From positions 1 through 37,379 of the IMG/VR virus record IMGVR_UViG_3300029936_000040: a stretch of 37,379 nt of DNA; one strand, written 5' to 3'. Both the position numbers and the translations under genes were made by a program. This DNA is from a virus. The notes beneath the pieces are model-generated. The model was not told the origin of the DNA. It ran no database searches and worked only from the letters and a program-made list of their open reading frames with translations. Positions 1 through 32,650 of this stretch are shown here, piece after piece. Every line of letters begins with the position of its first letter. Position 1 is the stretch's first letter.

Positions 1-200
1 GCCCGAAAACGGTCTATCTAAGCAGGCCCAAAAACGGACAGAAGAGGATGTAGAAGCAGGCCCGAAAACGGTACAGCTTGAAACGGAAGCAGGCCCGAAA
101 ACGGACATAAGCAGGCCCGAAAACGGACATGAAGCAGGCCCGAAAACGGGCTACGGAACCATCAGTGAACCATCAGGAACCGGTAAACCTAAAAACATTA
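1..200. repeat. Iteron array plus A/T-richer flank: second half of a candidate replication origin that continues from 37238-37379 across the circular junction
   Basis: The 17-mer AGCAGGCCCGAAAACGG occurs at 55-71, 88-104, 110-126 and 133-149. A variant, AGCAGGCCCAAAAACGG, is at 21-37, and nt 1-12 are the tail of the copy starting at 37352. GAACCATCAG follows twice (156-165, 167-176), then an A/T-richer stretch at 182-200. All of this lies inside the initiator ORF, as with lambda ori inside O. Confidence 0.7.
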
Positions 201-3631: not shown

Positions 3632-4882
3632 ATGCGAGACGTCGTTGTTGGCATGCGTAGCGTTGATTCGCTGATCCCGTACGCAAGGAACGCCCGCACC
3701 CACAGCGATGCGCAAGTGGCGCAGATCGCCGCCAGCATCCGTGAATTCGGATGGACAAATCCGATTCTTGTCGACGGCGAGAGCGGCATCATCGCCGGGC
3801 ATGGCCGACTGCTTGCCGCTCGCAAGTTAAACATGACAGAAGTTCCGTGCATTGAGCTTTCCAGCCTGTCTGAAATTCAGAAGCGCGCCTATATCCTGGC
3901 GGACAACAAGCTTGCGATGAATGCCGGATGGGACGGCGAAATGCTGCGCCTTGAGCTTGGCGAGCTTGCCGCGATGGGCTTCGACACGCTGCTGACCGGG
4001 TTCTCCGACGAGGAATTGCTTGGCCTGAATGATGGAGGAATTCAGCCTGGCCTGACGGACGAGGATGAGGTTTCAGAGCCTCCTGTTGATCCCGTGACAA
4101 GGCTTGGCGACGTGTGGTTGATGGGAAAGCACCGCATTGTTTGCGGCGACTCTACTGACCCGCTCGTTGTCGAAAAGGCTTTGAATGGAGTCGTTCCGCA
4201 TTTGATGGTCACGGACCCGCCGTATGGCGTGGAGTACGACGCTGACTGGAGGAACAAAGCATTCCGAGCCGACGGCTCTCCCATTGGTGGGAGAGCCGTC
4301 GGCAAAGTCATGAATGACAATAATGCCGATTGGCGCGAGGCGTGGGCGCTGTTTCCTGGAGATGTCGCCTATGTGTGGCACGCCCCTGGGGCGCTTTCTG
4401 CAGTTGTATGCGAGTCTCTACAGGCGTCCGGTTTTGATATTCGAGCGCAGATTATTTGGGCCAAGAGTAATTTTGTAATCAGCCGCGGGCATTACCACCG
4501 TGGCCATGAGCCGTGCTGGTATGCCGTCCGAAAAAAAGCGGGGGCGACCGGTCATTGGAACGGCGACAGAACGCAATCGACACTCTGGAAAATCGACAAT
4601 CCAGTCAAAAGCGAGACGGGCCACAGCACGCAGAAGCCAGTCGAGTGCATGCGCCGACCAATCGAAAACAATAGCAGCGTAGGCCAGGCGGTCTATGAGC
4701 CTTTCTCTGGATATGGAACGACGATCATCGCCGCAGAAACAACAGGGCGATGCTGTCATGCCATTGAGCTTAATCCGGCATACGTCGACATGGCCGTGAA
4801 GCGCTGGCAAGACTTCACCGGGAAGCCGGCAACGCTTGAGTCTGACGGGCGAACTTTCGACGAGTGCGCGCAGTGCCAGTAG
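3632..4882 (+). CDS. ParB-like nuclease domain fused to an N6/N4 DNA methyltransferase
   Basis: The N-terminus reads IPYARNARTHSDAQVAQIAASIREFGWTNPILVD..IIAGHGRLLAARKL (ParB/Srx-type). The C-terminal half carries MVTDPPYGVEY (DPPY, motif IV) and VYEPFSGYGTT (FxGxG-like). Confidence 0.85.
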   Translation: MRDVVVGMRSVDSLIPYARNARTHSDAQVAQIAASIREFGWTNPILVDGESGIIAGHGRLLAARKLNMTEVPCIELSSLSEIQKRAYILADNKLAMNAGWDGEMLRLELGELAAMGFDTLLTGFSDEELLGLNDGGIQPGLTDEDEVSEPPVDPVTRLGDVWLMGKHRIVCGDSTDPLVVEKALNGVVPHLMVTDPPYGVEYDADWRNKAFRADGSPIGGRAVGKVMNDNNADWREAWALFPGDVAYVWHAPGALSAVVCESLQASGFDIRAQIIWAKSNFVISRGHYHRGHEPCWYAVRKKAGATGHWNGDRTQSTLWKIDNPVKSETGHSTQKPVECMRRPIENNSSVGQAVYEPFSGYGTTIIAAETTGRCCHAIELNPAYVDMAVKRWQDFTGKPATLESDGRTFDECAQCQ

Positions 4883-4923
4883 GACGCCTCCCGACGCCGA
4901 CTCGTTTGCTCTGGTACTGAAAT

Positions 4924-5307
4924 ATGGCAAGGCCAACATTCAAGCCGACAGACCAAAACCGCCTCTACGTTGAGCAGCTATCGGCGTTTGGGATTCCAGC
5001 GGCGCAGATTGTCGGGCTGATACCTGGAAGCAACGGAAAGCCAATTTCAGAGGGCACGCTGCGAAAGTATTTCTCAGCGGAACTTGAAACTGGAACGACG
5101 AAAGCCAACGCCAGAGTAGCAAATACGCTCTTCAATAAGGCGATAAAGGGCGACACGACGTCATGCATATTCTGGCTTAAGACGCGCGCCGGATGGCGAG
5201 AGACGAGCGTCGTTAAGATGGAAATCGAGCAAGTGCCGGACGAGGAGCTTGATGGGCGCATCGCTGAGCTTGCACGAAAAGCGGGAACTGCTCGCGCTAC
5301 TGACTGA
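4924..5307 (+). CDS. Terminase small subunit
   Basis: 127 aa immediately upstream of the large terminase. It contains TLRKYFSAELETG...ANTLFNKAIKGD..SCIFWLKTRAGWRE, a pattern typical of small-terminase families. Confidence 0.7.
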   Translation: MARPTFKPTDQNRLYVEQLSAFGIPAAQIVGLIPGSNGKPISEGTLRKYFSAELETGTTKANARVANTLFNKAIKGDTTSCIFWLKTRAGWRETSVVKMEIEQVPDEELDGRIAELARKAGTARATD

Positions 5308-6694
5308 GCAGGAGCGGCGCCGGTCCCTGCTCAAGTGGTTGAGCTTCTACCCGGAAGACGGGCCTTTGCGGCGCGAGCTTTACCAGAAGCACCTTGCTTT
5401 TTTCGCTGCCGGCGCGCGATACCCGCAGCGGATGATGATGGCCGCGAACCGAGTCGGAAAAACCGAGGGAGTCGGCGCTTACGAGGTCTCGCTGCACCTC
5501 ACCGGCAATTATCCGGGCTGGTGGCCTGGCAAGCGATTCACGCGCCAAACGCGCGGATGGGCGGCAGGCGACACGCGTCAGACGGTTCGCGACATCCTCG
5601 TAGAAAAGCTGCTCGGGCCGAAGTCTGCGCGCGGCACTGGCATGATTCCAGGGCGCCAGATTGTGCGCATCGTGCCGCAGCCTGGCGTGCCTGATGGCGT
5701 CGAGCTGGTCGAGGTCAAGCACGCGAGCGGAAAGATTTCTCGCCTCGGGTTCAAGAGTTTTGACCAGGGTCGAGTCTCTTTTCAGGGCACGGAACAGGAT
5801 TTTGTTTGGTTGGACGAAGAGCCTCCGCCTGACGTCTATGAGGAGTGCCTGACTAGGACGATGACGACTGGAGGCCTGCTTCTGCTGACCTTCACTCCGC
5901 TGTCGGGGCTGTCGGACGTGGTGATGATGTTCCTGCCGGGAGGAGACATCCGAGAGCAGGCGGACGAGAAAAGCGGCCGATTCGTGGTCATGGCGACGTG
6001 GGATGATGTGCCGCACCTCGACGAACGCACCAAAGAAATGCTGTTTGCTTCATACATGCCGTTTCAGCGCGACGCCCGCACCAGGGGCGTTCCGGCGCTC
6101 GGTAGCGGGGCGATTTACCCGGTGCCAGAGTCCGACATCGTGGTTCCGGATTTCGCGCTTGCGGAGCACTGGCCGCGATGCTACGGGCTCGATGTGGGGT
6201 GGAATCGCACCGCGGCAATTTGGGGCGCTGTCGATCGAGAGACGGGCACGACGTACCTCTACTCGCAGCACTACCGCGGCGAGGCAGAGCCGATCGTGCA
6301 TGCGCAGGCGATCAAAAACCGCGGCGAGTGGATTCCAGGCGCGATTGATCCCGCGAGCCGCGGCCGATCGCAGAACGACGGCCAGCAGCTCATGGATTTG
6401 TACTGCGGCATGGGGCTTGATCTGGCTCCAGCGGATAACGCGGTCGAGTCAGGCATCTACGACACGTGGACGCTTCTCTCTGCCGGAAAACTCAAGGTGT
6501 TTGCGAGCTGCCAGGACTGGATCAACGAGTACCGGATTTATAGGCGAGACGACAAGGGGCGCGTGGTGAAAAAGCACGATCACTTGATGGACGCCTCTCG
6601 GTATCTCGTGCGAACCGGGCGCGACCTGGCGCGCTGCAAGCCAACCGACAAGCAAGACGAGCAAAGCTACGGGGGCGGCGGATGGATGGGCTAA
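5252..6694 (+). CDS. Terminase large subunit
   Basis: Walker-A-like ANRVGKTEG and Walker-B-like FVWLDEEPP, with a C-terminal nuclease-type half. ATG 5252; the track begins at TTG 5249. Confidence 0.85.
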   Translation: MGASLSLHEKRELLALLTEQERRRSLLKWLSFYPEDGPLRRELYQKHLAFFAAGARYPQRMMMAANRVGKTEGVGAYEVSLHLTGNYPGWWPGKRFTRQTRGWAAGDTRQTVRDILVEKLLGPKSARGTGMIPGRQIVRIVPQPGVPDGVELVEVKHASGKISRLGFKSFDQGRVSFQGTEQDFVWLDEEPPPDVYEECLTRTMTTGGLLLLTFTPLSGLSDVVMMFLPGGDIREQADEKSGRFVVMATWDDVPHLDERTKEMLFASYMPFQRDARTRGVPALGSGAIYPVPESDIVVPDFALAEHWPRCYGLDVGWNRTAAIWGAVDRETGTTYLYSQHYRGEAEPIVHAQAIKNRGEWIPGAIDPASRGRSQNDGQQLMDLYCGMGLDLAPADNAVESGIYDTWTLLSAGKLKVFASCQDWINEYRIYRRDDKGRVVKKHDHLMDASRYLVRTGRDLARCKPTDKQDEQSYGGGGWMG

Positions 6695-7026
6695 ACGTGA
6701 GAGAGGTTCGATCAGGCTCGGCAAGTGCGATCGTCGCCGAGAGCCTGGCCATGCCGCCGCGCATCCGGTCAAAGGTGCTCGAAGTGCGCAGCGTCTACGT
6801 GCCCGAGAACAACCGCAAAGCTGGCCTCGGAAATGCGTTGCTGCGCAAGCTGTGCGCTGATGCTGACATCGCAGGAAATGCGCTGTTCCTGATGCCTGAC
6901 GGCAGCGACGAGGCCGAAACGGCGCGCCTTGAGCGTTGGTACGCAACACACGGATTCGAGCGCATCCAGGGCGATCCGGTTGTGGTCATGCTCCGCAAGC
7001 CGCAACATCCGCTGATCAAACACTGA
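6682..7026 (+). CDS. Small GNAT-family N-acetyltransferase-like protein
   Basis: VYVPENNRKAGLGNALLRKL matches GNAT motif A (R/Q-x-x-G-x-G/A), followed by LERWYATHGFE. The protein is only 114 aa. GTG 6697 is an alternative start. Confidence 0.55.
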   Translation: MDGLNVREVRSGSASAIVAESLAMPPRIRSKVLEVRSVYVPENNRKAGLGNALLRKLCADADIAGNALFLMPDGSDEAETARLERWYATHGFERIQGDPVVVMLRKPQHPLIKH

Positions 7027-7032
7027 GGCAGC

Positions 7033-9144
7033 ATGAAGCAGAAAAGCAAAGCCGACGACGACATCATCGCCGAGGCCAACGCTCGGTACGCCCGCTGCTT
7101 GGCGTTCGAGGCGGACAATCTCAAGGAGGCGCGAGACGATTTTCAGAAGCTGGCGGGCAATCACTGGCCCGCAGACGCTGCGCAGCAGCGCGCAATCGAG
7201 CGCCGTCCGTGCATCACGATCAACAAATTGCCCGCGTTTTTGCACACGGTAACGAACGACCAGCGACAGAACAAGCTCGGCATCAAGGTTCATCCGGTCG
7301 ATGATGGCGCGGACATCAAGACGGCCGACGTGCTGCAGGGGTTGATTCGGCACGTCGAGTATGAGAGTGGCGCGGATGCCTGCTACGACACGGCTGGATT
7401 TCATGCGGCCGCCTGCGGTTTCGGGTATTTCCGTATTCGCACGGAGTACGACCGAGAAGATTCGTTTGACCAGGTGCCGCGGTTCGAGCGGTTCCGGTCT
7501 CCGTTCTCGGTGCATCCAGACCCAGACGCAAAAGAGCCTGACGGAAGCGATCAGGATTTTTGTTTTGTGGACGGCACGATCGCGCGATCCGAAGTCAAGC
7601 GCGACCATCCCGGCGCGTCGGCGGCAGTCTCGAACGAGAGCGACGGCACGGACGACGTAATGCTGCTCTGCTCGGAGTATTACCGGATCGAGCAGTCGCC
7701 GGCCGCGCTGGTGCGCCTGAGCAATGGCGAAACGGGCTGGAAAGATGACCTGATCGAACTGCCGTTCGGCGTCACGATTGTCGATGAGCGCAAGAGCAGG
7801 CGCCGAAAAGTCATGTGGTACAAGCTCTCGTCTTCTGAGTCTGTCGAGCGCGGCGCGGTCGGCATGCCAGGCAGCTCAACGACGTTCACGGATGTGCTTG
7901 AGCGCGCCGAGATTCCCTGCCGATGGATCCCGGTTTTCCCGGTCTATGGCGAGGAACTGGAGATCGACTCGAAAGTCGTTCGCTCCGGGCTGATTCGGCA
8001 CGCCAAAGGCCCGTCAGTGATGTACGACTACTGGATGACCGCGGCGACAGAGGAAGTCACACTGCGCCCGAAGACGCCATTCATCGGCGCCGAGGGGCAG
8101 TTCGAGGGACACGAAAAGAAATGGCGCGCGGCGAATGTGCAGACATTCTCCTATCTCGAATACAAGCCGAAGACGATCGGCGGACAGCTTGCTCCTGCGC
8201 CACAGCGGCAGCCGATGGCTGATATCCCGTCTGGAGTCCTGGCAATGGCCATGCACGCGGCGGACGAAATCAAAGCGACGACCGGCATTTTCGATTCGTC
8301 TCTCGGCGCCCGCGGTACGGCCACAAGCGGCATTCAGGAGCGCGAACAGAAGAGGCAAGGAAACGTCGCCAACTTCCACTTCAGCGACAACCTGACGCGC
8401 GCTGTTCGGCACGCCGGGCGCTGCCTCGTGGACATGATCCCGCGGATTTACGACACGGAGCGCGTCGTCCGCATTCTCGGCGATGACGAGAAGGTTTCGC
8501 ATACGACGATCAATCAACCGCTTGAACAACCGGAAATCGACGAGAAGACGGGCGCGATTCGCACGGTGCTGAACGATCTGACGGTCGGCAAATACGACGT
8601 GACCGTATCCGCAGGCGCCAGCTACTCGACACGCAGGCAGGAAGCTTCTGATGCGATGGTTTCGTTTGGCCAGTCCTGGCCGAAGCTCATGGACGTTGCC
8701 GGCGACAAGGTTGTCACGGCGATGGACTGGCCAGGTGCCGACGAAATCGCGGAGCGCATCAAGCGCACGATTCCGCCCGAATTGCTCGGCGACGAAGACG
8801 GCGAGGACGGCGAACAGTCGCCGCAGATTCCGCCGCAAGTGCTGCAGATCGTCCAGCAGGCACAGCAGCACATCCAACAGCTCGAAGCCGAATTGCAGGA
8901 CGCCAAGACCGGCATCGAGAAGGCGCGCATCAGCGCCGAGTCGTCCGAGCGAGTCGCACAGATCAACGCCAACGGCCGGCAGGACGTGGAAGAGCTGAAA
9001 GGCTGGATTGCGATGCTCATGCAGAGCATGCAACCGCCGCCAGCGCTCAACGCAGCAGCGATGCAGACCCAAGAACAGCAGCAAGAACCAATCGCGCAGG
9101 GGCCGGGCCAGCCTCCTGATTTCGCGCCCGGCCAAGAGTTTTGA
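7033..9144 (+). CDS. Portal protein
   Basis: 703 aa after the terminase. The N-terminal segment RRPCITINKLPAFLHTVTNDQRQNKLGIKVHP looks portal-like. The C-terminus is Gln-rich and helical (QIPPQVLQIVQQAQQHIQQLEAELQ), like P22-type portal barrels. Confidence 0.85.
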   Translation: MKQKSKADDDIIAEANARYARCLAFEADNLKEARDDFQKLAGNHWPADAAQQRAIERRPCITINKLPAFLHTVTNDQRQNKLGIKVHPVDDGADIKTADVLQGLIRHVEYESGADACYDTAGFHAAACGFGYFRIRTEYDREDSFDQVPRFERFRSPFSVHPDPDAKEPDGSDQDFCFVDGTIARSEVKRDHPGASAAVSNESDGTDDVMLLCSEYYRIEQSPAALVRLSNGETGWKDDLIELPFGVTIVDERKSRRRKVMWYKLSSSESVERGAVGMPGSSTTFTDVLERAEIPCRWIPVFPVYGEELEIDSKVVRSGLIRHAKGPSVMYDYWMTAATEEVTLRPKTPFIGAEGQFEGHEKKWRAANVQTFSYLEYKPKTIGGQLAPAPQRQPMADIPSGVLAMAMHAADEIKATTGIFDSSLGARGTATSGIQEREQKRQGNVANFHFSDNLTRAVRHAGRCLVDMIPRIYDTERVVRILGDDEKVSHTTINQPLEQPEIDEKTGAIRTVLNDLTVGKYDVTVSAGASYSTRRQEASDAMVSFGQSWPKLMDVAGDKVVTAMDWPGADEIAERIKRTIPPELLGDEDGEDGEQSPQIPPQVLQIVQQAQQHIQQLEAELQDAKTGIEKARISAESSERVAQINANGRQDVEELKGWIAMLMQSMQPPPALNAAAMQTQEQQQEPIAQGPGQPPDFAPGQEF

Positions 9145-9158
9145 TCGTGGAGCCATCC

Positions 9159-9992
9159 ATGCAGGAAGCACAAGAGCAGGACCAATCGTCGCCGGCAGAC
9201 GCAAGCAGTGAATCGCCGGAAGCCGTGACCGAGGAACTACAGCAGTCCGAGCAGCAGGAAGCCGCAGAGAAGCCCGAAGAGGGCGACGAAGGCGACGACC
9301 AAGGCGGCGAGGAAAAGCCGCAGGAGAAGCCAAAGCGCAGCGCTCGTGAGCGTATCAACGAGTTGACGAAGCGTGCGCACGAGGCAGAGCGTGAAGTGCA
9401 GAGACTGCGCGAAGCGTCCGATCGAAAGCCGGCCGAGTCCGCCGAGAAGCCAATCCCTGACAGGTTCGGTTCGTATGACGAATACGTCGAGGCGTTGGCG
9501 GACTGGAAAGCGGACCAGCGAGTCGCCGATTCGTTCAAGAAGCGCGATGCCGAGCGGGCGCAAGCGGCAGAGGCGCGGGCAGCAGAAGCCAAGGCGCAAG
9601 CCTGGCACGAGCGTCAGATCGCCTTCCGCGAAGACACGCCGGACTATGACGCGGTTATTGGCAAATCGGCCGTGCAGGTAGCGCCGCACGTCGTCGACAC
9701 GCTGCTCGACAGCGACTCTGGGCCGGAGCTTGCCTATCACCTCGCCAAACACCCGGAAACGGTCAAGCGTATCAACTCCCTTTCGCCGCTCGCCGCGGCG
9801 CGGGAAATCGGCAGGATCGAGGCAACGCTATCGAATCCGGCCGCGCCACAAATCAAACCGGCCAGCAAAGCGCCTGCGCCGATTACGCCCGTCCGATCGT
9901 CCGCTTCTGCGGCCGTCGACTTGGCATCTGCAAACATGGACCAGTACATCGCCGCACGTCGCAAACAAGGCGCGACATTCAGGCGGCGGTAA
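9159..9992 (+). CDS. Scaffolding protein
   Basis: Acidic, Glu/Gln/Ala-rich helical protein between portal and coat. GGAG at 9148-9151 sits 7 nt upstream of ATG 9159. The track start at 9141 is a TTG. Confidence 0.7.
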   Translation: MQEAQEQDQSSPADASSESPEAVTEELQQSEQQEAAEKPEEGDEGDDQGGEEKPQEKPKRSARERINELTKRAHEAEREVQRLREASDRKPAESAEKPIPDRFGSYDEYVEALADWKADQRVADSFKKRDAERAQAAEARAAEAKAQAWHERQIAFREDTPDYDAVIGKSAVQVAPHVVDTLLDSDSGPELAYHLAKHPETVKRINSLSPLAAAREIGRIEATLSNPAAPQIKPASKAPAPITPVRSSASAAVDLASANMDQYIAARRKQGATFRRR

Positions 9993-10018
9993 TCCACATC
10001 GAAACGGAGTAATAAATC

Positions 10019-11233
10019 ATGAGTAACACTTTGCTTACCAGCAGCATCCTGGCCAAAGAAACTTTGGCCGTCATTGAAAATAACTGCGCTTTCGGCGGCA
10101 TGGTCAATCGCGACTACGAAACCGTACATAGCGCGTCGATGCGGGACGGCTACGAGCCTGGAGCGACGATCAACATCCGCAAGCCGTCGCGCTATACGTA
10201 TCGGTCCGGGCGCGTCTCTGTGCCGCAGGCATCCGTCGACAACTCTGTTCCGCTGACGCTTTCGCAGGGCGGCGCGGATTTGAACTTCAACCTGTTCGAG
10301 CGCTCGCTGCAGATCACCGATCGGCGCATCCAGAAGAAGATCAACGCCGCCGCGGCGACCATCGTCAACGAGATCGACAGGGTTGGCCTGCTGCTCGCCA
10401 AGACGGCGGTCTACAACTGCTTGAACCCGTCCGGCGCTCTGCCGACGACGCAGGCGCTTTCGCTGGCGGCCATCACCGGCATCAATCAGCGCCTCGACGA
10501 AATGGGCGCGCCTCGCGACAACATGCGCGGCCTGATCATGAACCCGGCCATGAACGCGGCGACGGTTGGTGGTTTCGCCGGGCTGTTCAACGGCCAGGCA
10601 AAGCTCGGGCGGCAGTTCGACTCGGGGCTGATGGTCGATAGCCTGGGCCTGTCGTATGCGATGGACCAGAATGTCGCGGTGCATACCAACGGCGCAGCCA
10701 CTGCCACGAACATCAACGGCGCCGGCCAAACGGGGGCGGCGATTACGGTCGTTGCAGTCGCTGGCGGCACGCTGGCGGCCGGTACGGTCATCACCCTACC
10801 GGGCGTCTATGCGGTCAATCCGCAGTCGCGCGTGAGCACTGGCGTTCTGGCCGATTTCGTGGTGACTGCGGACGTTTCCGCCGCGGCCACGTCGATCCCG
10901 ATCAGTCCGGCAATCGTCACCAGTGGGCCATATCAGAACGTCACGGCTTCGCCGACGACTGGCCAGCCGTATGTGATCAAGGGCGCGGCTTCGACGTCCT
11001 ACGGCTGCAATGTGGGATTCCACGAGGACGCGTTTACCCTCGCCATGGTTCCGATGGCAACGCCTCCGGACGGCACCGGCGCGCGCGTTGAGCAAATCTC
11101 GCACAACGGTTACACGATCAAGATTACGGACTTCTACGACGGCACGAACGACAACGTAGTCACTCGTCTCGATGTGCTGTTCGGGTGGGCCGCGACGTAT
11201 CCCGAGCTGGCCTGCAAGTACTACACGGCCTAA
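10019..11233 (+). CDS. Major capsid protein (P22 gp5-like coat family)
   Basis: 404 aa. The N-terminal SSILAKETLAVIENNCAFGGMVNRDYE and C-terminal GFHEDAFTLAMVPM...RLDVLFGWA patterns are typical of P22-type coat proteins. Position after the scaffold gene also fits. Confidence 0.85.
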   Translation: MSNTLLTSSILAKETLAVIENNCAFGGMVNRDYETVHSASMRDGYEPGATINIRKPSRYTYRSGRVSVPQASVDNSVPLTLSQGGADLNFNLFERSLQITDRRIQKKINAAAATIVNEIDRVGLLLAKTAVYNCLNPSGALPTTQALSLAAITGINQRLDEMGAPRDNMRGLIMNPAMNAATVGGFAGLFNGQAKLGRQFDSGLMVDSLGLSYAMDQNVAVHTNGAATATNINGAGQTGAAITVVAVAGGTLAAGTVITLPGVYAVNPQSRVSTGVLADFVVTADVSAAATSIPISPAIVTSGPYQNVTASPTTGQPYVIKGAASTSYGCNVGFHEDAFTLAMVPMATPPDGTGARVEQISHNGYTIKITDFYDGTNDNVVTRLDVLFGWAATYPELACKYYTA

Positions 11234-11245
11234 ACGACAGCCTTT

Positions 11246-11265
11246 AACCACGGAGCGCCGTGGTT
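11246..11265 (+). other. Stem-loop just downstream of the capsid gene (possible attenuator or RNA-stability element)
   Basis: AACCACGG (11246-11253) pairs with CCGTGGTT (11258-11265) across an AGCG loop. No U-tract follows. Confidence 0.35.
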
Positions 11266-11292
11266 CTCCCCGGCGCATTTGGAGCATAGAGA

Positions 11293-12840
11293 ATGGCTAA
11301 TGTTGCTGTTACTTGCATAAAAAACGGCAGATCAGACTCTTTCGGCCGGCCGCTTGTTTCTGGAACGTATTACCCGTCTGTCGAGATTGAGACGGCAAAA
11401 GCTCTGTGGAATTCCGGGTATGTTTCCGTGGCAGATGCGTCCGTGTTCGACCAAGACCCGCTGGCCGGAACGAGTCCGCTTGACGATTTCAATATCGCCA
11501 GGGCGCTGTCTCTTTCAAGACAGCCAGAACAAACAAGCGCCAACCTCGCAGCGGAGCTTGCTGCGCTTGGTGCATATGTACAGCTTTCCCCAAAAGCAGG
11601 GTTGGCCGGTAACTATGGGTATGGCGTCGGCCCGTGTCCGTTTCGGCTGCCAGAAGGCTTTGTCCCGATGTCAGGCGTGTCGGACCCATTGTCGGATGGC
11701 TACGGAGGGTATCTGACACAGGACGGCAGTGTTATGCGTTGGCGTCCTGCCGAGTATAGGAAATGGGGAACTGGAACAAATGGGCTGGCGCTTAACTCTC
11801 TGGCCGTCCTTCCTGCAACATCAATGTCTATCGTTGAAGCTAATAATCAAGGGTTTATGCTTCCGCGCGAGTTTTACAATGCGGGAGTTGCGCAGCCTGG
11901 GTTCTTCATCGACCAATACGTTTGCTCGAAAGCACTATACCAGGGGAGGTGGATTGCAGTGTCGGTTAAGAATGCCGTATTCCTAAGCTCAAACGCTGCG
12001 AATAACCCAATATCCGCCCTTGATGGATCTCCATCCAACACGCATGCAGGATTTTTTGCAGCAGCAAAGACGCGTGGCAGCGCTTATTTCCCTGCAATTC
12101 GTGAAATGTACGCGAACTGTGCATTCTCTGCACTTGCCCACGCACAAGCAAGCCAAGGAACGGCTGCCTGTGCATGGTTTGATGGTGCAGGGACTACGAA
12201 CTTTCCAAAGGGCTGCAACTCCGTTCTAAACGACATAAATGATGGAGGTGTCACGTACACAGCATCTGGATATTCCAATGCCGGACTTACAGGGTCTGGC
12301 ACTCCATTCGCAAAGACGACACACAACGGCCAAAACTGCGGGATTTGCGACCTGGCTGGGCCTATTTGGGCGTTTAGTCCGGGCATCACTGCGCTAAGTG
12401 GTAACTATTACGCATTAAAACTATCTGTTGATATCGCCAGCCTTACGGGAGGCTCGACATTAGCCACTGATGCGTTTGGCGCTACGGGGATTGCCGCGAA
12501 TTATGATCTTATTGGCCCTACGTTCGGGGCATACCTTGGGGGGACAAGCGTATATACTTACGGGTCAGCATCTCAGGTATTCTCTGAGCAGATGTCTGGC
12601 AATGCGTGGCGGATGACAAGCCTCGGAATCCCGCTTGCGACAGGCGTTGGAGGAACAAATGCCTACGGGCAAGATGCGTTCTATGATAATCGCACTGACA
12701 ATATGGCGGTTCTGTCTGGGGGTCGCTTTAGTGCTGGTACATTGACAGGAGTTTGGGGATGTGGCAACCATTTAAATTCCACCTCTGACGCCGGGGTTGG
12801 CTTTAGATGCGCGCGCTATCTTGACGCCGGGAGCTTCTAA
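11293..12840 (+). CDS. C-type-lectin/FGE-fold protein (Mtd-like candidate receptor-binding or decoration protein) with a DGR-VR-like C-terminus
   Basis: From about 11899 the sequence reads GFFIDQYVCSK ... HNGQNCGICDLAGPIWAF ... VLSGGRFSAGTLTGVWGCGNHLNSTSDAGVGFRCARYL, which is the FGE/CLec layout ending in GFRCA. GC is visibly lower than in the flanks. Confidence 0.6.
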   Translation: MANVAVTCIKNGRSDSFGRPLVSGTYYPSVEIETAKALWNSGYVSVADASVFDQDPLAGTSPLDDFNIARALSLSRQPEQTSANLAAELAALGAYVQLSPKAGLAGNYGYGVGPCPFRLPEGFVPMSGVSDPLSDGYGGYLTQDGSVMRWRPAEYRKWGTGTNGLALNSLAVLPATSMSIVEANNQGFMLPREFYNAGVAQPGFFIDQYVCSKALYQGRWIAVSVKNAVFLSSNAANNPISALDGSPSNTHAGFFAAAKTRGSAYFPAIREMYANCAFSALAHAQASQGTAACAWFDGAGTTNFPKGCNSVLNDINDGGVTYTASGYSNAGLTGSGTPFAKTTHNGQNCGICDLAGPIWAFSPGITALSGNYYALKLSVDIASLTGGSTLATDAFGATGIAANYDLIGPTFGAYLGGTSVYTYGSASQVFSEQMSGNAWRMTSLGIPLATGVGGTNAYGQDAFYDNRTDNMAVLSGGRFSAGTLTGVWGCGNHLNSTSDAGVGFRCARYLDAGSF

Positions 12841-13286
12841 TGCTTATTAAATATCAAAAGTTTATTACCCCTGGGCCTAACGGGACGACCGTAACTGTTA
12901 ATGTTGTTGGCACAGAGCTATGCACCATCGACGGCTGGACCTACTTCTGCCCAAGCTCTGGAGTCGCTCCAACAGATCAGGATTCACGCATTCAGACGTC
13001 CATTTCTGTTGTAAACCCTGATGCTGCTCTGAAGGATGAGATCAAGAAAGCCAGCCCCCATTGTGCGCTAATCAAAAATCGCCGACAGGAGGCAATTCTT
13101 TCTGCGGGGTATGACGAGAAGGACCAACAAGCGTTTCTGCATTTTGGGGTACGGGCAGCTATTGGTCCTGCTATCGGGATGCCTTTGCTGTCTGACGGAC
13201 AGGCTGCCGCTCTTACTGCCTATGCCGCAGTCTGCCTTACTGCGGATACAGCGGCAGGAGAGGCGTACGCGGCGCTTGGGCTGTAA
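12840..13286 (+). CDS. Hypothetical protein (148 aa), part of the low-GC insert
   Basis: TAATG overlap with the upstream gene. It ends in a one-base TAATG overlap (A at 13286) with the adaptor gene start. Confidence 0.6.
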   Translation: MLIKYQKFITPGPNGTTVTVNVVGTELCTIDGWTYFCPSSGVAPTDQDSRIQTSISVVNPDAALKDEIKKASPHCALIKNRRQEAILSAGYDEKDQQAFLHFGVRAAIGPAIGMPLLSDGQAAALTAYAAVCLTADTAAGEAYAALGL

Positions 13287-13996
13287 TGACAACCGCACTT
13301 CAGCTTGTAACCTCTGCGCTGCGCAAGATAGGAGCAGTCGCGGCCGGAGAGGCGCCAGACGCGAGCGAGCAGTCGGATGCGCTGGCCGCTTTGAATCAGC
13401 TTATCGAAAGCTGGAATCTTCAAGGGCTAGCGCTATACCGGCGCGAGAATGTCGCATACTCGCTTGTTCCGAGCCAGCAGACATACACCATTGGCAACGG
13501 CGCCGACTTCGACGGCGCGCGGCCGATTACGCTGAATGGCGCCTTCGTGACGCGGGGCGGAATCGACTATCCAGTTGTTCCGCTGACACAGCAGCAGTGG
13601 AACGACATTTTGCAGAAGTCGACGGAATCGCAACTTCCGGAAGCCGTCTATTACGAGCCGACGTTTCCTGACGGAACGCTGCGGTTCTGGCCGGCTCCGC
13701 TGGAATCGCTGACGGTCACGCTGGCCATTAATATGCAACTCGGCGCGATTGCCGACATCAACGACGACATGGAATTTCCGCCAGGGTACGAGCGCGCGCT
13801 GCTCTATGCGCTCGCCGTCGATCTTGCGCCCGAATACCCGGCCGTGACTCTGAGCCAGCGAGTGATCGACGCGGCAGACGAGGCGCTGGCGGACATCAAG
13901 CGGGCGAACAACACGCAAACCCAGCCGGCCGTCTTTGACTCGGCGCTGGCCGGCGGGAGCTGCCGGTCATTGGCCGCGTTCATGGCTGGATGCTGA
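13286..13996 (+). CDS. Head-to-tail adaptor (P22 gp4-like family)
   Basis: The N-terminus LQLVTSALRKIGAVAAGEAPDASEQSDALAALNQLIESWNLQG is the pattern I associate with gp4-type adaptor proteins. Its position after the coat gene fits. Confidence 0.55.
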   Translation: MTTALQLVTSALRKIGAVAAGEAPDASEQSDALAALNQLIESWNLQGLALYRRENVAYSLVPSQQTYTIGNGADFDGARPITLNGAFVTRGGIDYPVVPLTQQQWNDILQKSTESQLPEAVYYEPTFPDGTLRFWPAPLESLTVTLAINMQLGAIADINDDMEFPPGYERALLYALAVDLAPEYPAVTLSQRVIDAADEALADIKRANNTQTQPAVFDSALAGGSCRSLAAFMAGC

Positions 13997-13999
13997 TCC

Positions 14000-14377
14000 G
14001 TGCGAATCCCGCTCGCTTCCGACATCGAAAGCCGTGACGGATCGCTGACGGCCGGCGCCATGCTCGTTAATGCGGCGGTACAGGTCGAGAGCGAGGGCGA
14101 GACGACTGCTTTCAAGCGGGCTGGCTGCATTTCGCGCGGGTCGGTCACGGCCGGCGATGCGCAGTGCTTTACGGGGGTCGCCGGGAAAGCCGTTGCAGTC
14201 GTTGGTGATCGCGCATTCACGCTTGCCGTTGGCGAGCCGATAACCGAGGATGCTGACGACGACATGGCTCCGATCTTCGCTGGCCTGCAAGTGTCCGCGC
14301 GCGAGTCCGGGCAGGCAAGCAACGCGCGCTCGCTGATGCTCAAGACCGGCCGCGAAGCATGGATTCTGACGCCATGA
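14000..14377 (+). CDS. Virion/tail accessory protein (125 aa)
   Basis: GTG start. It begins MRIPLASDI, paralogous to the start of the next gene, and sits in the tail-hub gene block. Confidence 0.55.
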   Translation: MRIPLASDIESRDGSLTAGAMLVNAAVQVESEGETTAFKRAGCISRGSVTAGDAQCFTGVAGKAVAVVGDRAFTLAVGEPITEDADDDMAPIFAGLQVSARESGQASNARSLMLKTGREAWILTP

Positions 14378-15390
14378 GACTGCCGCTCGCTACCGACCTG
14401 AAAACGGCCATCAACGACCCCGCGATAGGGGAGCGGATTTTCAACGCTCACACGGAAACGCGCGGAGGAGTCACGAGGGTCAAGAAGCGTCCAGGAGCGC
14501 TGGCTACCGGGTGGGATTTCACGACGCCCATACAGAGCGGGTTCGGCGGAACGCTGCTTTATCTGATCTACGGCGACGAATTCAGCGTGATTGACGTCAG
14601 CAGCCCTCCTCCTGCGTCAGTGGCGATAGGCGATCTTGTCGGCGGCTATTATGCGATGATCGACAACCCGCCAACGTCGCCTGGTGGCGGCGACGCGTAT
14701 TGGAGCGCATCGCCTCCTGGAAGCTCCAGGTATGTGGCGACGTTCAAGCCCGGCTATGGAATGGGCAACATCTATGGCGGCGCGAATATGTACCTGCCGC
14801 CAAGCTCTCCTGGCCCGTGGTCTGGCGAACTGCGCGGGGCTGTCGCGGCGAGTACTGCAGCAACCGTCAAGAGCTTTGACGAAACGATTACCGCGCTTGG
14901 TGGAGTTATCTGCTGGGGATCTTCTGGAGGAATACCGCCGAACGGGTCCGGGCCAACGGCGCGATATCTTCCGACGGGAATGTATGAGTCTGGCGGGGTA
15001 ATCTTGGCGGCAGACAGTCGAGTGTCGAACGCAACTGTCAACTGGACGGCTGGCTATGTCCCTTCAGCAATCCCGGCTGTCGGCTCTCCGCTCGGCTATG
15101 ATATTTTCTCTGGGCCGGCAGCGATCTTAACAAGGAAAACGAAGACGGCGGCTACGATAACATCTTCTGGAACGGTCGCAACCATTGGCGTTGGGGTTTT
15201 GAGCCCGGCAGCGATCAGCAGGCGAATCGAGGTTTCTGGCGCAAACGAGCCCGAATACAACGGGGTTTTCGACGTCTACCTGAACGCCAACCCTCTGGCC
15301 AGCACAGCCACTGGCGAGCTCTATTACGACATGACTGGAACGCCAGCGGCAAGCCCTGCGACCGGGTCTGTCACAGTCAAATACTTCTGA
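14374..15390 (+). CDS. Virion/tail protein with a C-terminal repeat module
   Basis: ATGA coupling at 14374 gives an N-terminus MRLPLATDL; the track start ATG 14359 is an alternative. The C-terminal ~75 aa (nt ~15148-15378) carry the EYNG...ATG.VT module also present twice in the next gene. Confidence 0.6.
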   Translation: MRLPLATDLKTAINDPAIGERIFNAHTETRGGVTRVKKRPGALATGWDFTTPIQSGFGGTLLYLIYGDEFSVIDVSSPPPASVAIGDLVGGYYAMIDNPPTSPGGGDAYWSASPPGSSRYVATFKPGYGMGNIYGGANMYLPPSSPGPWSGELRGAVAASTAATVKSFDETITALGGVICWGSSGGIPPNGSGPTARYLPTGMYESGGVILAADSRVSNATVNWTAGYVPSAIPAVGSPLGYDIFSGPAAILTRKTKTAATITSSGTVATIGVGVLSPAAISRRIEVSGANEPEYNGVFDVYLNANPLASTATGELYYDMTGTPAASPATGSVTVKYF

Positions 15391-15400
15391 GCAGACAACG

Positions 15401-16975
15401 ATGCCAGCCCTCGCCGTGACCGTTGCTGGACAGCCGTTCGACATGATGGGGTATGTCGCCGAGCAGTCAGTTTTCGGCCTGTTCTTCAAATCTGCATACG
15501 ATGCATTCAATTTCGAGAATAACGTGCTGACAAAAATCACCGACGCAGATTATCCAGGATGGAGCACGGTCACGCCGACAAGCATAACGCGAACTGGGTC
15601 GACTGCGACGGTCACGCTGCCTGCGCCAGTCAACTGGCAATCTGGATCGACCGTGACAATCGCTGGCGCTGCACAAGCTGAATACAACGGAAGCGTTCTG
15701 ATTACCGTCGCTGATGCGACGCACTTCACTTACGCAGTAACCGGGACTCCGACGACGCCGGCAACGGGCACGATAACCGCGAAGGGTGGGCGAACGACGG
15801 TGCCGGGCGTTGCCTACCTGGACGGATACTTCTTCGTCATGGACCAGAACGCCGTTATCTATAACAGCGGGCTGAATGACCCGACAGCATGGGGAGCGCT
15901 GGACTTCATAACGGCTGCGATCGAGCCTGGCGGCGGGGTGGCGCTGGCCAAGACGCAGAACTACATCGTCGCGTTCAAGGACTGGAGCACGGAATTTTTC
16001 TACGACGTCGGCAACCCAACGGGGTCCCCGCTGTCGCCGGTGCTGTCCGCGTTCACGCTGGTGGGTTGCGCTGTTGGCGAGTCGGTCGCGGAACTCGATG
16101 AGACGGTCTATTGGGTGTCGAAAGCTCGGCAGAAGGGCAGGGCGGTGCACAAGATGGTCGGCCTTCAACAGCAGCTTGTCAGCACGCCGGACATTGACCG
16201 CATCCTGGCAACGTCGGACCTATCGAGCGTCTACGCCTATGGCGTCAAGCTGTCCGGGCATTCGTTCTACATCTTGGGCCTGCGCGACATTGACGTGACG
16301 CTGGCCTATGACGCGACGGCTGGAACCTGGGCGCAATGGTCGAGCTTGACGGCGCAAACGCCGAAGTCATGCACGCTCACGCAGTCGGGCGGCGTGGCGA
16401 CCGCGGCATGCACGGCGCACGGCTACGCAGACGGGGCGGCGGTCACGATCGCGGGGGCAACGCCAAGCGACTACAACGGCTTGAAACAGATTCGCGTCAC
16501 ATCCGCAGACGCCTTCACATTCAGCATCGCCAGCGGCGCCGCAAGCCCGGCGACGGGCACGATTACGGCGACCGGGTACGATGAGGGATACTTCCGGTAT
16601 ACGCACTACGTGGCTGCGGCCGGGCGTGATCTGGTGCTGCACGAGACGACCGGCGCGCTTGTCGAAATCACGCCCGATGCCTATACCGACGACGGGGCGC
16701 CGATCGCGTTGAAGCTCCGCACAGGCAAGCTCGACAGCGGCAACGAGAATTACAAGGGCCTCGGCCAGATTCGCGTCATCGGCGAGAAGCAGGGCGGCGA
16801 GGCGATGCTGCGATGGTCGGACGACGACTACGCGACGAACTCGGCCTGCCGTCCTGTTGATCTGTCGTCGGTGCAGGCGCGCATTCGGCGGTGCGGGGCG
16901 TATCGGCGCAGAAGTTTTGAACTGCTACACGTCGCTGCGCTGCCGGTGCAGCTTGAAGCGCTCGAATTGGACTGA
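15401..16975 (+). CDS. Tail hub / DNA stabilisation protein (P22 gp10-like) with two inserted repeat modules
   Basis: YLDGYFFVMDQNAVIYNSGLNDPTAWGALDF...IVAFKDWSTEFFYDVGN, and a C-terminus RIRRCGAYRRRSFELLHVAALPVQLEALELD that parallels the P22 gp10 terminus (WKRVGRIRRLIGFKLRV...QIRLE). Confidence 0.65.
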   Translation: MPALAVTVAGQPFDMMGYVAEQSVFGLFFKSAYDAFNFENNVLTKITDADYPGWSTVTPTSITRTGSTATVTLPAPVNWQSGSTVTIAGAAQAEYNGSVLITVADATHFTYAVTGTPTTPATGTITAKGGRTTVPGVAYLDGYFFVMDQNAVIYNSGLNDPTAWGALDFITAAIEPGGGVALAKTQNYIVAFKDWSTEFFYDVGNPTGSPLSPVLSAFTLVGCAVGESVAELDETVYWVSKARQKGRAVHKMVGLQQQLVSTPDIDRILATSDLSSVYAYGVKLSGHSFYILGLRDIDVTLAYDATAGTWAQWSSLTAQTPKSCTLTQSGGVATAACTAHGYADGAAVTIAGATPSDYNGLKQIRVTSADAFTFSIASGAASPATGTITATGYDEGYFRYTHYVAAAGRDLVLHETTGALVEITPDAYTDDGAPIALKLRTGKLDSGNENYKGLGQIRVIGEKQGGEAMLRWSDDDYATNSACRPVDLSSVQARIRRCGAYRRRSFELLHVAALPVQLEALELD

Positions 16976-21091: not shown

Positions 21092-21997
21092 GTGACGGTC
21101 ATTGTATCCCCGCCAGTGCCGAAATCAGACCAGAGGTTTGACGACTGGATGTATTTGTTCTGGAAACGAGTATTCGAGGCGATTTCTAGCGCCGGAGTAG
21201 GGTCGGTGGACCTAACGGATTACGCGTACCTTCCTGGGCGAGTTGGCGGGCAGCTTCTTCGCGGCGGAGCAGATAATGACGATGCGCTAACCCTTCAAGG
21301 AACTGCGGGAACGAGCGAAGATACGGCAGATGCAATTCTGCTGAAAACTGGCACCGCAGGCGACCATACGGCCGTCAAGGTTCGCGGAGACGGAGCCGTT
21401 GCAATAAACGGCGACTACGATGGAGCGTATGGCATGCCTACATCGATAAGCGGCGGCGCGCTGTTCCGTGGCGGAGACGGAGAGATTGGAATGCTCAGCG
21501 TTACCACAGACACTGTGGCAGCCGGGTTTTTTAATCTCGGCGCGTATGTGGTTAATATAGGCCAGAACGCCACCCAAACAAGCAACATCGGCTCCGGGGC
21601 CTTGCTTTCTATCTATAAAAATCAAGACATGAACGGATACGACAATCTCGCAGGGATGATTGACCTTCATGACAGCCCGTCTGGAACAGGAGACAGAACC
21701 AACGTCACGGTAAACATAAAAATCGACAGCATAATAAGGGCGCGCTTGTACCCAAGAATTCCAGACGGGACGATAGGCGAGGCGTATATGTTTGACACGA
21801 AAACCGAAATCACGCAGACGGATACCAAGCTATTTGCAATCAAAAACTCAGGCGTCACAAGGTTTTCAGTGGACTGCAATGGCATGCTATTTTGTGACAG
21901 CATTCCAGAGTACGCCGACAACGCAGACGCGTTATCTGACGGCCTTGTTGTAGGAAATGTCTACCACACAGGCGGCACCATGAAGATCGTCATCTGA
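21092..21997 (+). CDS. Tail fiber / receptor-binding protein
   Basis: GTG start with GAGGT 6 nt upstream. GC is lower than the genome average. The middle is Gly/Thr/Asn-rich and beta-type. The C-terminus is EYADNADALSDGLVVGNVYHTGGTMKIVI. It occupies the terminal position in the virion block. Confidence 0.6.
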   Translation: MTVIVSPPVPKSDQRFDDWMYLFWKRVFEAISSAGVGSVDLTDYAYLPGRVGGQLLRGGADNDDALTLQGTAGTSEDTADAILLKTGTAGDHTAVKVRGDGAVAINGDYDGAYGMPTSISGGALFRGGDGEIGMLSVTTDTVAAGFFNLGAYVVNIGQNATQTSNIGSGALLSIYKNQDMNGYDNLAGMIDLHDSPSGTGDRTNVTVNIKIDSIIRARLYPRIPDGTIGEAYMFDTKTEITQTDTKLFAIKNSGVTRFSVDCNGMLFCDSIPEYADNADALSDGLVVGNVYHTGGTMKIVI

Positions 21998-24706: not shown

Positions 24707-24768
<62 letters not shown>

Positions 24769-24835
24769 CAAATCCAGTGGTAGCAAGGCTTTCCGGCAAC
24801 TCGTGAATATGCGTCACGGATTGGTTATCCAATCG

Positions 24836-31617: not shown

Positions 31618-31880
31618 TGCAGGAACCCGCGCAGAACGTCGCCAACTGCCAGAAGCAACACCAGAATGACGCTGACGAAAAACACCCTCTCTCCAAGCGG
31701 TGTGTCATCGCGAGGAGCGACAAGATCGCGCTGCTCTTCGGGCGTCAGCTCGCACGCCTCGATTGTCTCTGCGGCGATTGACGCCCACGCGGCAGCGGCC
31801 CGCATGTCGCCGTCGTCGAGCGTAGAAAGCGCGCGGTTTAGCGCTTCGCGAGCGCCTTCTTGGTTGGTCGCGGCGCTCAT
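31614..31880 (-). CDS. Hypothetical protein (88 aa) with a C-terminal hydrophobic helix
   Basis: Track ORF. The C-terminus is VFFVSVILVLLLAVGDVL. Confidence 0.55.
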   Translation of the reverse strand: MSAATNQEGAREALNRALSTLDDGDMRAAAAWASIAAETIEACELTPEEQRDLVAPRDDTPLGERVFFVSVILVLLLAVGDVLRGFLQ

Positions 31881-32650
31881 TCCGACTTCTTCGTTTCGTT
31901 TGCCAATTCGAGGAATTTCGCTTCTTGTGCGTCCAGTGCTGCGCTCCAGGCTGAGCTCCAGGCTGCGCCCCCGGCTTCGGCCCTGGCTGCGGCCCCGGCT
32001 GCGGCCCCGGCTGCGGACCCTGATGCGGCCCAGGCTGCGGCCCTGGCTGCGTCCCCGGCTGCGGCCCCGGCTGCGGCCCCGGCTGCGGACCCTGATGCGG
32101 CCCTGGCTGCGTCCCCGGCTGCGGCCCCGGCTTCGGCCCAGGCTGCGGCCCTGGCTGCGTCCCTGGCTGCGGCCCAGGCTGCGGCCCCGGCTTCGGCCCT
32201 GGCTGCGGCCCCGGCTGCGGCCCCGGCTGCGGACCCTGATGCGGCCCCGGCTGCGTCCTCGGCTGCGGCCCAGGCTGCGGCCCAGGCTGCGGCCCTGGCT
32301 GCGTACCCTGATGCGTCCCAGGCTGCGGCCCAGGCTGCGTCAAGTTCTTCTTTTGTTGCGTCTCCGTTGGCAAATCGCTCGGCGATATCCATGGCAGCGA
32401 TTGATCGCGGGTCGGTCATCAGGTGCTGAACTTGCCTTGCGCACCAAACTGCGAACAAACGAATTTCCTTGCCGTAGCCTGACACGGCCCGCAGGCACCA
32501 CAGAGCGTCGTCCAGGCCGTTACTGTCGATGATCGTAATCAGGCTAAGAGGATCGTCGTCTGCGGCAGTCTTGCCGAGATTTGCGAGCAATTTTTTCCAG
32601 CCATCGGCGCATGGATGATGGTCGCGGATTGCGTTTAGAGTTGTCTTCAT
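31877..32650 (-). CDS. Ala/Trp/Arg/Gly tetrapeptide-repeat protein with a globular N-terminal domain
   Basis: The N-terminus reads LNAIRDHHPCADGWKKLL...SNGLDDALWCLRAV...RLFAVWCARQVQHLMTDPRS. About 33 A-A-[G/R/W]-[A/D/S] units follow. ATG 32650 is ATGA-coupled to the upstream gene. This frame is the one continuous with a non-repetitive N-terminal domain and with the leftward operon. Confidence 0.65.
   Translation of the reverse strand: MKTTLNAIRDHHPCADGWKKLLANLGKTAADDDPLSLITIIDSNGLDDALWCLRAVSGYGKEIRLFAVWCARQVQHLMTDPRSIAAMDIAERFANGDATKEELDAAWAAAWDASGYAARAAAWAAAWAAAEDAAGAASGSAAGAAAGAAARAEAGAAAWAAARDAARAAAWAEAGAAAGDAARAASGSAAGAAAGAAAGDAARAAAWAASGSAAGAAAGAAARAEAGGAAWSSAWSAALDAQEAKFLELANETKKSE
31949..32344. 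repeat. 33-unit tandem array of a 12-bp repeat (GGCTGCGGCCCN)
   Basis: Units are phased at 31949+12k. The variable last base (C/A/T) gives Gly/Trp/Arg on the minus strand. GGCTGCGGACCC-TGATGCGGCCC pairs recur at a 72/144-bp higher order. Four frames (two per strand) carry long ORFs across the array. Confidence 0.9.

Follow-up and report, generated by a model that had tools for sequence, protein, structure and literature searches.

A probable fossil variable region, left by loss of a diversity-generating retroelement, in a lectin-fold protein of a wastewater podovirus

How does a phage protein come to end like the target of a diversity-generating retroelement (DGR) in a genome that appears to carry neither a reverse transcriptase (RT) nor a template repeat (TR)? 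The protein in question is encoded in a podovirus sequence of 37,379 nucleotides, the whole of which is referred to here as the window. A sequence-only reading of this DNA had proposed two answers: the C-terminus is either a fossil variable region (VR) or a target diversified in trans by a DGR located elsewhere. Mtd of Bordetella phage BPP-1 is the prototype of DGR-diversified receptor-binding proteins, and the order of its cassette is usually written mtd-atd-TR-brt. We find that the window protein belongs to a large family in which DGRs are active, and that its own VR is probably a fossil left by deletion of the avd-TR-RT block.

Gene, genomic setting and fold

The window contains a complete genome of approximately 37.2 kb, bounded by a terminal direct repeat in which positions 1-126 recur at 37243-37368, which bears out its earlier description as apparently complete. 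No tRNA genes were found within the window. Around the locus of interest the genome resembles EBPR podovirus 1 (EPV1, JF412294), with 93% identity over the shared parts of a 6-kb query. A P22-type coat gene (10019-11233; PF11651, E = 4e-27) is located upstream of the target ORF, with scaffold and P22-type portal genes further upstream, while a 148-aa ORF (12840-13286) and a P22 gp4-like adaptor gene (13286-13996) follow downstream. Every peptide quoted in the sequence-only reading is present in the target ORF, including GFFIDQYVCSK (residues 203-213, nt 11899-11931), and the protein ends with VLSGGRFSAGTLTGVWGCGNHLNSTSDAGVGFRCARYLDAGSF directly before the stop codon. The proposed start at 11899 is internal to the ORF and the gene begins at 11293. 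An exact copy of the resulting 515-aa protein exists in public collections (P0001). The gene and its parts are as follows.

11293-12840, plus strand: complete gene for the lectin-fold protein, 515 aa, from the ORF list; stop codon TAA at 12838-12840
11293-11570, plus strand: N-terminal putative virion-anchor domain and flexible linker, residues 1-93, native to the EBPR-podovirus backbone
11590-12837, plus strand: C-type-lectin (CLec)/FGE-fold domain, residues ~100-515, putatively ligand-binding, from Foldseek, the A1 family profile and BFVD
12334-12375, plus strand: core motif NCGICDLAGPIWAF, residues 348-361, the window version of the family motif HNGQxCGvADLnGNmWE, from the A1 consensus and its invariant columns
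12704-12822, plus strand: probable fossil VR, residues ~471-510, MAVLSGGRFSAGTLTGVWGCGNHLNSTSDAGVGFRCAR, corresponding by homology to the VR/TR span in relatives with a DGR

An AlphaFold2 model of the protein, calculated from a 57-sequence alignment, has a mean pLDDT of 84 and is confident through the C-terminus. It begins with a small domain, continues through a disordered linker (pLDDT below 50 over residues 57-99) and enters a well-defined domain at about residue 100. Residues 1-94 share 95% amino acid identity with EPV1 gp34 and similarity stops beyond them, with the blastn breakpoint against EPV1 at position 11570. The protein P0121 carries the same lectin domain behind a different N-terminus. 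In a Foldseek comparison with the PDB the top match was TaqVP of Thermus aquaticus (5vf4, E = 1.8e-12, target-normalised TM 0.60), followed by five Mtd variants (1yu0-1yu4, E ~1e-3, TM ~0.36) and then by FGE (E 2e-3 to 5e-2), PvdO and TvpA. The family profile A1 matched 5vf4 as its sole PDB entry (E = 1.6e-6), in an alignment that spans the HNGQxCGvADLnGNlWE core and pairs the C-terminal VR of the family with that of TaqVP. The CLec/FGE fold, first suggested by sequence hallmarks, is confirmed by these model and profile comparisons; the domain comprises ~415 residues (~100-515), and the ~310 aa previously assigned to it were too few. A Pfam search of the 515-aa protein returned no family at E ≤ 0.1, FGE-sulfatase (PF03781) included, and single-protein sequence searches of the PDB and PHROGs gave no functional name. 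Its structural neighbours in BFVD are mostly annotated as tail (collar) fibre proteins.

At about 14% identity, TaqVP and the window protein have in common an HxG..G.ADL.GN.WE core, in which NCGICDLAGPIWAF aligns with TaqVP residues HDGTPAGIADLVGNVWEW, and a VR at the C-terminus that follows the pattern GG.W..G..AG..AL.L...R......G.R. The DGR of TaqVP, a cellular protein, is functional, whereas the window protein is part of a phage structural module, possesses an extra N-terminal anchor and is accompanied by no RT, TR or Avd. With Mtd, a weak structural match, it shares the C-type-lectin fold, a C-terminal VR and, most likely, a role as phage adhesin. The overall fold is also common to the FGE domain (PF03781), a similarity at the level of the fold only, and unlike FGE the window protein shows no sign of an enzymatic role. 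Judged by its fold, its homologues and the place of its VR, the window protein falls into the CLec-fold class of DGR variable proteins.

Diversification in the protein family

Homologues of the window protein number more than 640 (E ≤ 1e-3), with 45-65% identity over residues ~103-510 and varied N-termini. Among GenBank phages we found only distant relatives (at most 30% identity), in Campylobacter and Helicobacter phages. Family C-termini follow the pattern SGGxWxxxSxAGVWALxLxxxRxxSxxxVGFRAALYL, where x denotes hypervariable positions. In a survey of 80 IMG/VR viral loci of the family, most contain a second, Asn-rich copy approximately 550-650 nt downstream of the VR (GGNWNNGSNAGVWALNLNNARSNSNDNVGFR). 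In every locus, all VR/TR mismatches in the 45 nt that match best fall on template adenines (for example 6/6 in L016 and 7/7 in L070). Over 36 distinct VR/TR pairs, 544 of 965 template adenines (56%) are changed in the VR, compared with 50 of 3247 non-A positions (1.5%). The ORFs between and after the repeats of locus L038 encode bAvd (PF22296) and a reverse transcriptase (RVT_1, PF00078), and tblastn over the 80 loci detected RT in 53 and Avd in 57. A GC-rich hairpin, either of the GGCCCGAGCGATAGCGATGGGCC type or a GNRA-loop variant, is conserved right after the stop codon in DGR-bearing relatives. The resulting order of target, avd, TR and RT, with a hairpin just downstream of the VR, matches that of BPP-1. 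DGR diversification in these relatives is current, because near-identical phage pairs without a single difference over 1085 upstream and 1480 downstream positions nevertheless differ at 7-21 of 93 VR bases. The window terminus was therefore rightly called DGR-style, and in a strong sense, its homologues being associated with canonical bAvd-TR-RT cassettes and adenine-specific VR/TR mismatches.

A GG.W...GFRCA-like C-terminal motif is a general feature of FGE-type folds, and the motif alone is consequently no proof of past diversification. The window terminus can be aligned with a VR consensus as had been claimed, but not position for position, since a gap of one codon is required to align it with the consensus of the family's own VRs and TRs, GGNWNNGSNAGVWALNLNNARGNSNNNVGFRA. 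Similarly, the reported run of NNY codons at 12760-12792 does contain 10 of 11 such codons, but it lacks significance: NNY codons make up 55.7% of the ORF, which gives P(≥10/11) = 0.016 for each 11-codon segment, with 505 segments in the ORF. Over the whole VR, 20 of 30 codons are NNY. We thus rejected the NNY-codon argument for a DGR past as not beyond chance.

Retroelement absence and scaffold decay

The absence of RT, Avd and a second VR copy from the genome, noted in the sequence-only reading, was borne out by tblastn, an A-tolerant scan and a repeat search. With the family's own proteins from L038 as queries, tblastn against the window gave best E-values of 0.2 (RT) and 0.68 (bAvd). RVT_1 had no match in 10 scanned window ORFs of 260-690 aa, and a Pfam scan found none in the portal, coat or target ORFs; the downstream ORF at 12840-13286 did not match bAvd. 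Neither strand of the window contains an A-tolerant copy of 12690-12840, and no repeats within the window involve this region. The GC-rich hairpin and an IMH-like end after the VR are likewise absent from the window, where the 75 nt following GFR have a folding energy of -9.2 kcal/mol, compared with roughly -14 to -30 kcal/mol in DGR loci. As RT, TR, Avd and hairpin as well as hypervariability (see below) were all looked for and not found, the window gene is not part of a DGR. At the position of the missing elements the target gene runs directly into a second gene.

12838-12842, plus strand: TAATG stop/start overlap of the target and p148 genes, the junction at which relatives carry hairpin, bAvd, TR and RT
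12840-13286, plus strand: p148, a conserved 148-aa partner gene, from tblastn synteny and conserved motifs

Homologues of p148 were detected by tblastn in at least 50 family loci, in each case directly following the target or RT gene, and contain the conserved motifs TELCTIDGWTY and SPHCALI. The AlphaFold2 model of p148 has a pLDDT of 92, and searches of it gave no informative fold, Pfam or PDB match. A DUF4376 protein occupying the same position in a Helicobacter prophage was considered as an equivalent of p148 and rejected, as the two do not align.

The scaffold of the window VR is strongly altered. GG, GVW and GFR are retained, and changes of W to F, AL to G- and R to S together with a one-codon deletion affect positions with 90% or more conservation across the family. 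When the VR is compared with 36 TRs, allowing one codon gap, none of them comes closer than 38 mismatches at the ~90 non-A template positions, which a DGR would copy faithfully; active VRs show a median of 5 non-A mismatches, even to non-cognate TRs. The VR DNA retains no similarity to family TRs beyond that imposed by protein constraint. No part of the domain has diverged further from the sister cluster P0002 than the VR, with 33% identity compared with 58% for the rest of the domain and 90% for the last 10 residues.

Loci of relatives differ in how much of the DGR they keep. Where a DGR is present the p148 homologue is found right after RT (in L038, RT at 11917-12903 and the p148 homologue at 12875-13240), while in DGR-less loci it adjoins the target gene. 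L026, L033 and L061 have kept Avd/RT fragments and lack the TR. In L003-5, L020, L071 and L080 the cassette is absent and the scaffold intact, the closest TR differing at 3-16 non-A positions. Strongly decayed scaffolds, with 38-50 mismatches, are found in the window, L002/L006 and L058. L003-5 represents a 42-kb SU10-like phage, and its exact target protein is present on at least 23 contigs.

The outgroup, a Helicobacter ganmani prophage (BK070120) whose target protein is 30% identical, carries target, bAvd, TR and RT in the same order as the family, with a TR 91% identical to its VR; because of this arrangement, an ancestral DGR is the parsimonious reading. In an outgroup-rooted neighbour-joining (NJ) tree the window and L002/L006 are sister to all other ingroup members. 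An NJ tree rooted on so distant an outgroup (30% identity) carries little weight and is easily affected by long-branch attraction, and with the window clade in this position the case for loss therefore rests on the outgroup state and not on nesting. The basal position would suit a lineage that never had a DGR, namely an ancestral non-diversified lectin-fold adhesin whose VR-like end is the fold's conserved C-terminal strand pair. Such an origin would also agree with the generality of the GG.W...GFRCA-like ending among FGE-type domains, with the non-significant NNY run and with VR DNA that resembles TRs only as far as the protein dictates. We nevertheless consider it quite unlikely. The outgroup bears the full cassette in the same order, partial-deletion intermediates exist among the relatives, and p148 borders the cassette where a DGR is present and the target gene itself where it is not, as clean excision would leave it. 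Moreover, in the comparison with P0002 conservation within the domain is lowest in the former VR, while the last 10 residues are 90% identical.

We thus regard it as probable that the window VR is a fossil left by deletion of avd, TR and RT. In most of the family, bAvd, TR and RT are located between the target gene and the conserved ~150-aa partner, and this cassette rewrites the VR by adenine-specific mutagenic retrohoming. Deletion of the bAvd-TR-RT block and of the target-recognition hairpin in the lineage of the window cassette would then have locked in one VR variant. From this point the VR could have changed by ordinary point mutation only, its scaffold drifting through the W to F and AL to G- changes and the loss of one codon to a state that no family-type template could match any longer.

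Remnants of DGR targets have been described before. In Treponema denticola isolates, target genes found in the absence of RT and TR are regarded as remnants (PMC4891356), and for cyanobacteria (Nostoc/Anabaena all3226) loss of the diversifier after fixation of a favourable variant has been discussed (PMC7517822). These systems and the window have in common that VR-bearing targets outlast the core DGR components. The Treponema and Nostoc remnants are cellular genes, whereas the window gene belongs to a phage structural cassette with a decay series among its relatives and later transfer between backbones.

Invariance, transfer and virion location

The P0001 cluster (90% identity) has six members from different samples that differ at ~10 positions outside the VR. 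Inside the VR they differ only by S480G (P0124) and by a frameshifting 17-nt duplication in L209. At the nucleotide level, and on the basis of a handful of assembled contigs, the VR is identical in the window and in three other metagenome contigs (L206, L207/L211 and L210), the last of which comes from an unrelated SU10-like phage, while the flanks differ by 1-1.5%. L206 shows 15 mismatches to the window in 4517 nt, and L207/L211 and L210 show 27 in 1757 nt, none of them located at 12535-13003. Hypervariability across related phages and contigs was thus not observed, with 0 nt differences in the VR of these contigs.

Compatible templates were searched for using exact-match patterns that allow the VR base or A at codon positions 1 and 2 and keep the third position fixed. 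A first pattern allowing the VR base or A at every position was discarded, as poly-A runs satisfy it. With both VR halves, and with patterns that miss diverged or differently phased templates, no template was found in IMG/VR or in the 185,579 species-representative genomes of GTDB. In JGI/ENA metagenome contigs the second VR half, the only one used there, retrieved just the VR itself, which served as positive control.

Since the scans found no template and the VR is invariant, the second proposal of the sequence-only reading, diversification in trans, is unsupported in viral, metagenome and genome collections alike. Continued rewriting of the VR by a DGR of the host chromosome or of a co-resident prophage is very improbable in our view. 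Remote DGR targets are documented elsewhere, for example in Treponema denticola (PMC4891356), the genomes inspected directly include no host of the window phage, and the VR is the segment most diverged from the nearest clade. These points are opposed by nucleotide identity of the VR across samples and two backbones with diverged flanks, by a VR that is followed by neither a GC-rich hairpin nor an IMH of the family type, by the outcome of the A-tolerant scans, and by the at least 38 non-A scaffold sites that differ from all 36 sampled TRs. The first proposal, a fossil VR, is the one that held: the VR is invariant across samples and two backbones, its scaffold has decayed, the hairpin and IMH-like end are missing, and intermediates are found in relatives.

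When the window is compared with L210, dN/dS amounts to 0.33 for the lectin domain (few differences) and 0.06 for p148, values that point to purifying selection on both. It is accordingly very unlikely that the gene is decaying into a pseudogene, or is a passenger that the phage could do without, with a C-terminus that has lost its importance, given dN/dS below 1, an AlphaFold2 model confident to the C-terminus and an intact ORF in the other five cluster members and eleven sister-cluster members; the tandem duplication in the near-identical contig L209, which truncates the protein to 489 aa, occurs in a contig with 4 gaps in 7.5 kb, suggesting assembly or sequencing indels.

The lectin domain and p148 together form a replacement module within the EPV1-like backbone.

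11571-13284, plus strand: horizontally acquired, low-GC two-gene cassette of the lectin-fold domain and the p148 gene, replacing the C-terminus of EPV1 gp34 together with gp33

By blastn, EPV1 shows no homology between 11570 and 13285 and is 93-94% identical in the flanks. GC content falls to 0.51-0.55 across the cassette, and its GC3 is 0.49, compared with 0.80 for the coat gene and 0.73 for the adaptor gene. In EPV1 the same slot contains the gp34 C-terminus and gp33, the latter a polysaccharide deacetylase (PF01522, E = 2.8e-8), and judging from this gene content the slot looks like a host-surface interaction module. The window cassette is also present, with 98.5% nucleotide identity, in L210, a SU10-like podovirus with a PF24175 SU10_adaptor gene downstream and a different N-terminal anchor. 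The presence of the same VR on this other backbone means that the frozen VR has moved between unrelated phages, one P22-like and one SU10-like. Since the loss of the DGR, recombination within the linker has thus carried the two-gene module of lectin domain and p148 into two or more unrelated podovirus backbones, and in the window phage it took the place of a different module composed of a binding domain and a polysaccharide deacetylase.

The position of the gene varies among relatives. In siphoviruses it is found downstream of tape measure or distal-tail genes, and in podoviruses and Mu-like phages directly after the major capsid gene, between this gene and the adaptor gene in the case of podoviruses. 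The notion that the family always stands next to the major capsid gene was rejected, as a major capsid gene (of three types) is located just upstream in only 19 of the 74 loci with enough upstream sequence; the many siphovirus loci with the gene after tape measure or distal-tail genes also contradict it. In SU10 the occupant of the same slot is gp10, for which a resemblance to phi29 head-fibre and epsilon15 minor capsid proteins is predicted, but which did not appear in the virion map (PMC9509320).

We commit to the reading that the target protein acts as a virion adhesin with fixed specificity, a role assigned from sequence and gene context. The virion-displayed product would consist of a backbone-specific short anchor, a flexible linker and a CLec/FGE-fold binding domain whose C-terminal ~40 residues would be the remnant of the DGR VR, and a host-surface ligand would be bound via the former VR face. 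A location in a tail fibre seems more likely than one in a capsid fibre. That the adhesin of P22-like, SU10-like and Mu-like phages might instead be a capsid-anchored head fibre is an unlikely arrangement, suggested by analogy. Unlike BPP-1 Mtd, the window copy is accompanied by neither retroelement nor hairpin and tropism switching is therefore impossible.

The biology of the window phage itself would be ordinary, that of a wastewater podovirus with an adhesin of fixed specificity. Should the head-fibre location prove true, part of the family would consist of DGR-diversified, and here DGR-frozen, capsid-displayed lectins with p148 as dedicated partner. The analysis defines a large DGR-target family without a Pfam model and, linked to it, an uncharacterised partner gene. 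Non-A mismatch load, the hairpin and partner-gene synteny may serve as criteria to distinguish live, recently dead and long-dead VRs in metagenomes. Within this one family, graded DGR states can be followed from active through internally deleted and cleanly excised with an intact scaffold to an old, drifted fossil, and a binding module once locked in can be transferred between unrelated phages.

Fixed and partly deleted cassettes in related loci

Relatives of the window differ in how much of the diversity-generating retroelement (DGR) accompanies the lectin-fold target gene. Two kinds of reduced locus are found, the first in the cassette slot of an SU10-like backbone and the second as internally deleted DGR cassettes.

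L210 224-2079: cassette slot, SU10-like backbone
L003-L005 10001-11893: cassette slot, SU10-like backbone
L026 11239-11651: internally deleted DGR cassette
L033 3310-3546: internally deleted DGR cassette
L061 1495-1980: internally deleted DGR cassette

The SU10-like podovirus L210 bears the exact cassette of the window (lectin-fold domain plus p148 gene) at 98.5% nucleotide identity, while SU10-like L003-L005 carry a different family member with an intact scaffold (the VR positions normally copied faithfully) and no TR; their exact protein is found again on at least 23 contigs. L210 and L003-L005 are independent DGR-less lock-ins in one shared slot of the SU10-like backbone. The three internally deleted cassettes have lost the TR and retain Avd and RT as short fragments, and their VRs show only 1-3 non-A mismatches to a known TR. 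In the fold output, the GC-rich hairpin that follows the target stop codon in DGR-bearing relatives is kept in L033; L026 and L061 are not listed there.

A complete, unannotated DGR is present in a Helicobacter ganmani prophage.

L208 (BK070120) 4521-8127: complete DGR
L208 6894-7006 and 6111-6223: TR and VR, 91% identical
L209 ~4440-4475: 17-nt tandem duplication, TCGCTTTAGTGCTGGTA, within the fossil VR

The prophage DGR comprises a 570-aa target, bAvd, TR and RT, all labeled hypothetical in the record. L209, a JGI 3300003281 contig with 98.9% identity to window 8313-15702, carries the duplication TCGCTTTAGTGCTGGTA, which causes a frameshift that shortens its protein P0123 to 489 aa. This duplication could represent genuine sequence variation or an error introduced during assembly.

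The partner protein p148

Window 12840-13286: p148, homologues in at least 50 loci

Homologues of p148 are always the next gene downstream of either the DGR target or the RT. The protein has conserved TELCTIDGWTY and SPHCALI motifs, with two conserved cysteines and one conserved histidine. Its AF2 model is confident, and a fold search with this model returned no informative neighbor.

Repeats of the window

1-153 and 37237-37372: terminal direct repeat region (exact repeat, 1-126 = 37243-37368)
21468-21496 / 24741-24769: 29-nt inverted repeat, GAGGGTTCGAATCCCTCCCTCTCCGCCAC
31928-32339: 12-nt tandem array, ~34 copies, inside ORF 31877-32659 (minus strand)

The terminal repeat is composed of five 22-nt units (AAGCAGGCCCGAAAACGG...), which could be binding sites for a packaging or replication protein. 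One arm of the inverted repeat resembles a tRNA T-arm and 3' end, and ARAGORN detects no tRNA genes in the window; the repeat may therefore be an attP core. The 12-nt array encodes four-residue repeats (AAAW/AAAG/AARA). The protein that contains them, an early-region product of 260 aa without a Pfam match, begins with an N-terminal domain of ~110 aa, and the repeats follow it.

Regions differing from EBPR podovirus 1

L001 6622-7638: gp33 of EBPR podovirus 1 (EPV1), polysaccharide deacetylase (PF01522, E=2.8e-8)
Window ~21183-21905: patch without EPV1 homology, within ORF 21092-21997

In EPV1, gp33, which is annotated as hypothetical, fills the slot equivalent to the window cassette. The second patch, of low GC content (0.52), is found where the ejection-protein block ends, which is the position of the tailspike in P22. 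The 301-aa product of ORF 21092-21997 has no Pfam or PHROG match. This patch may be another swapped host-range module.
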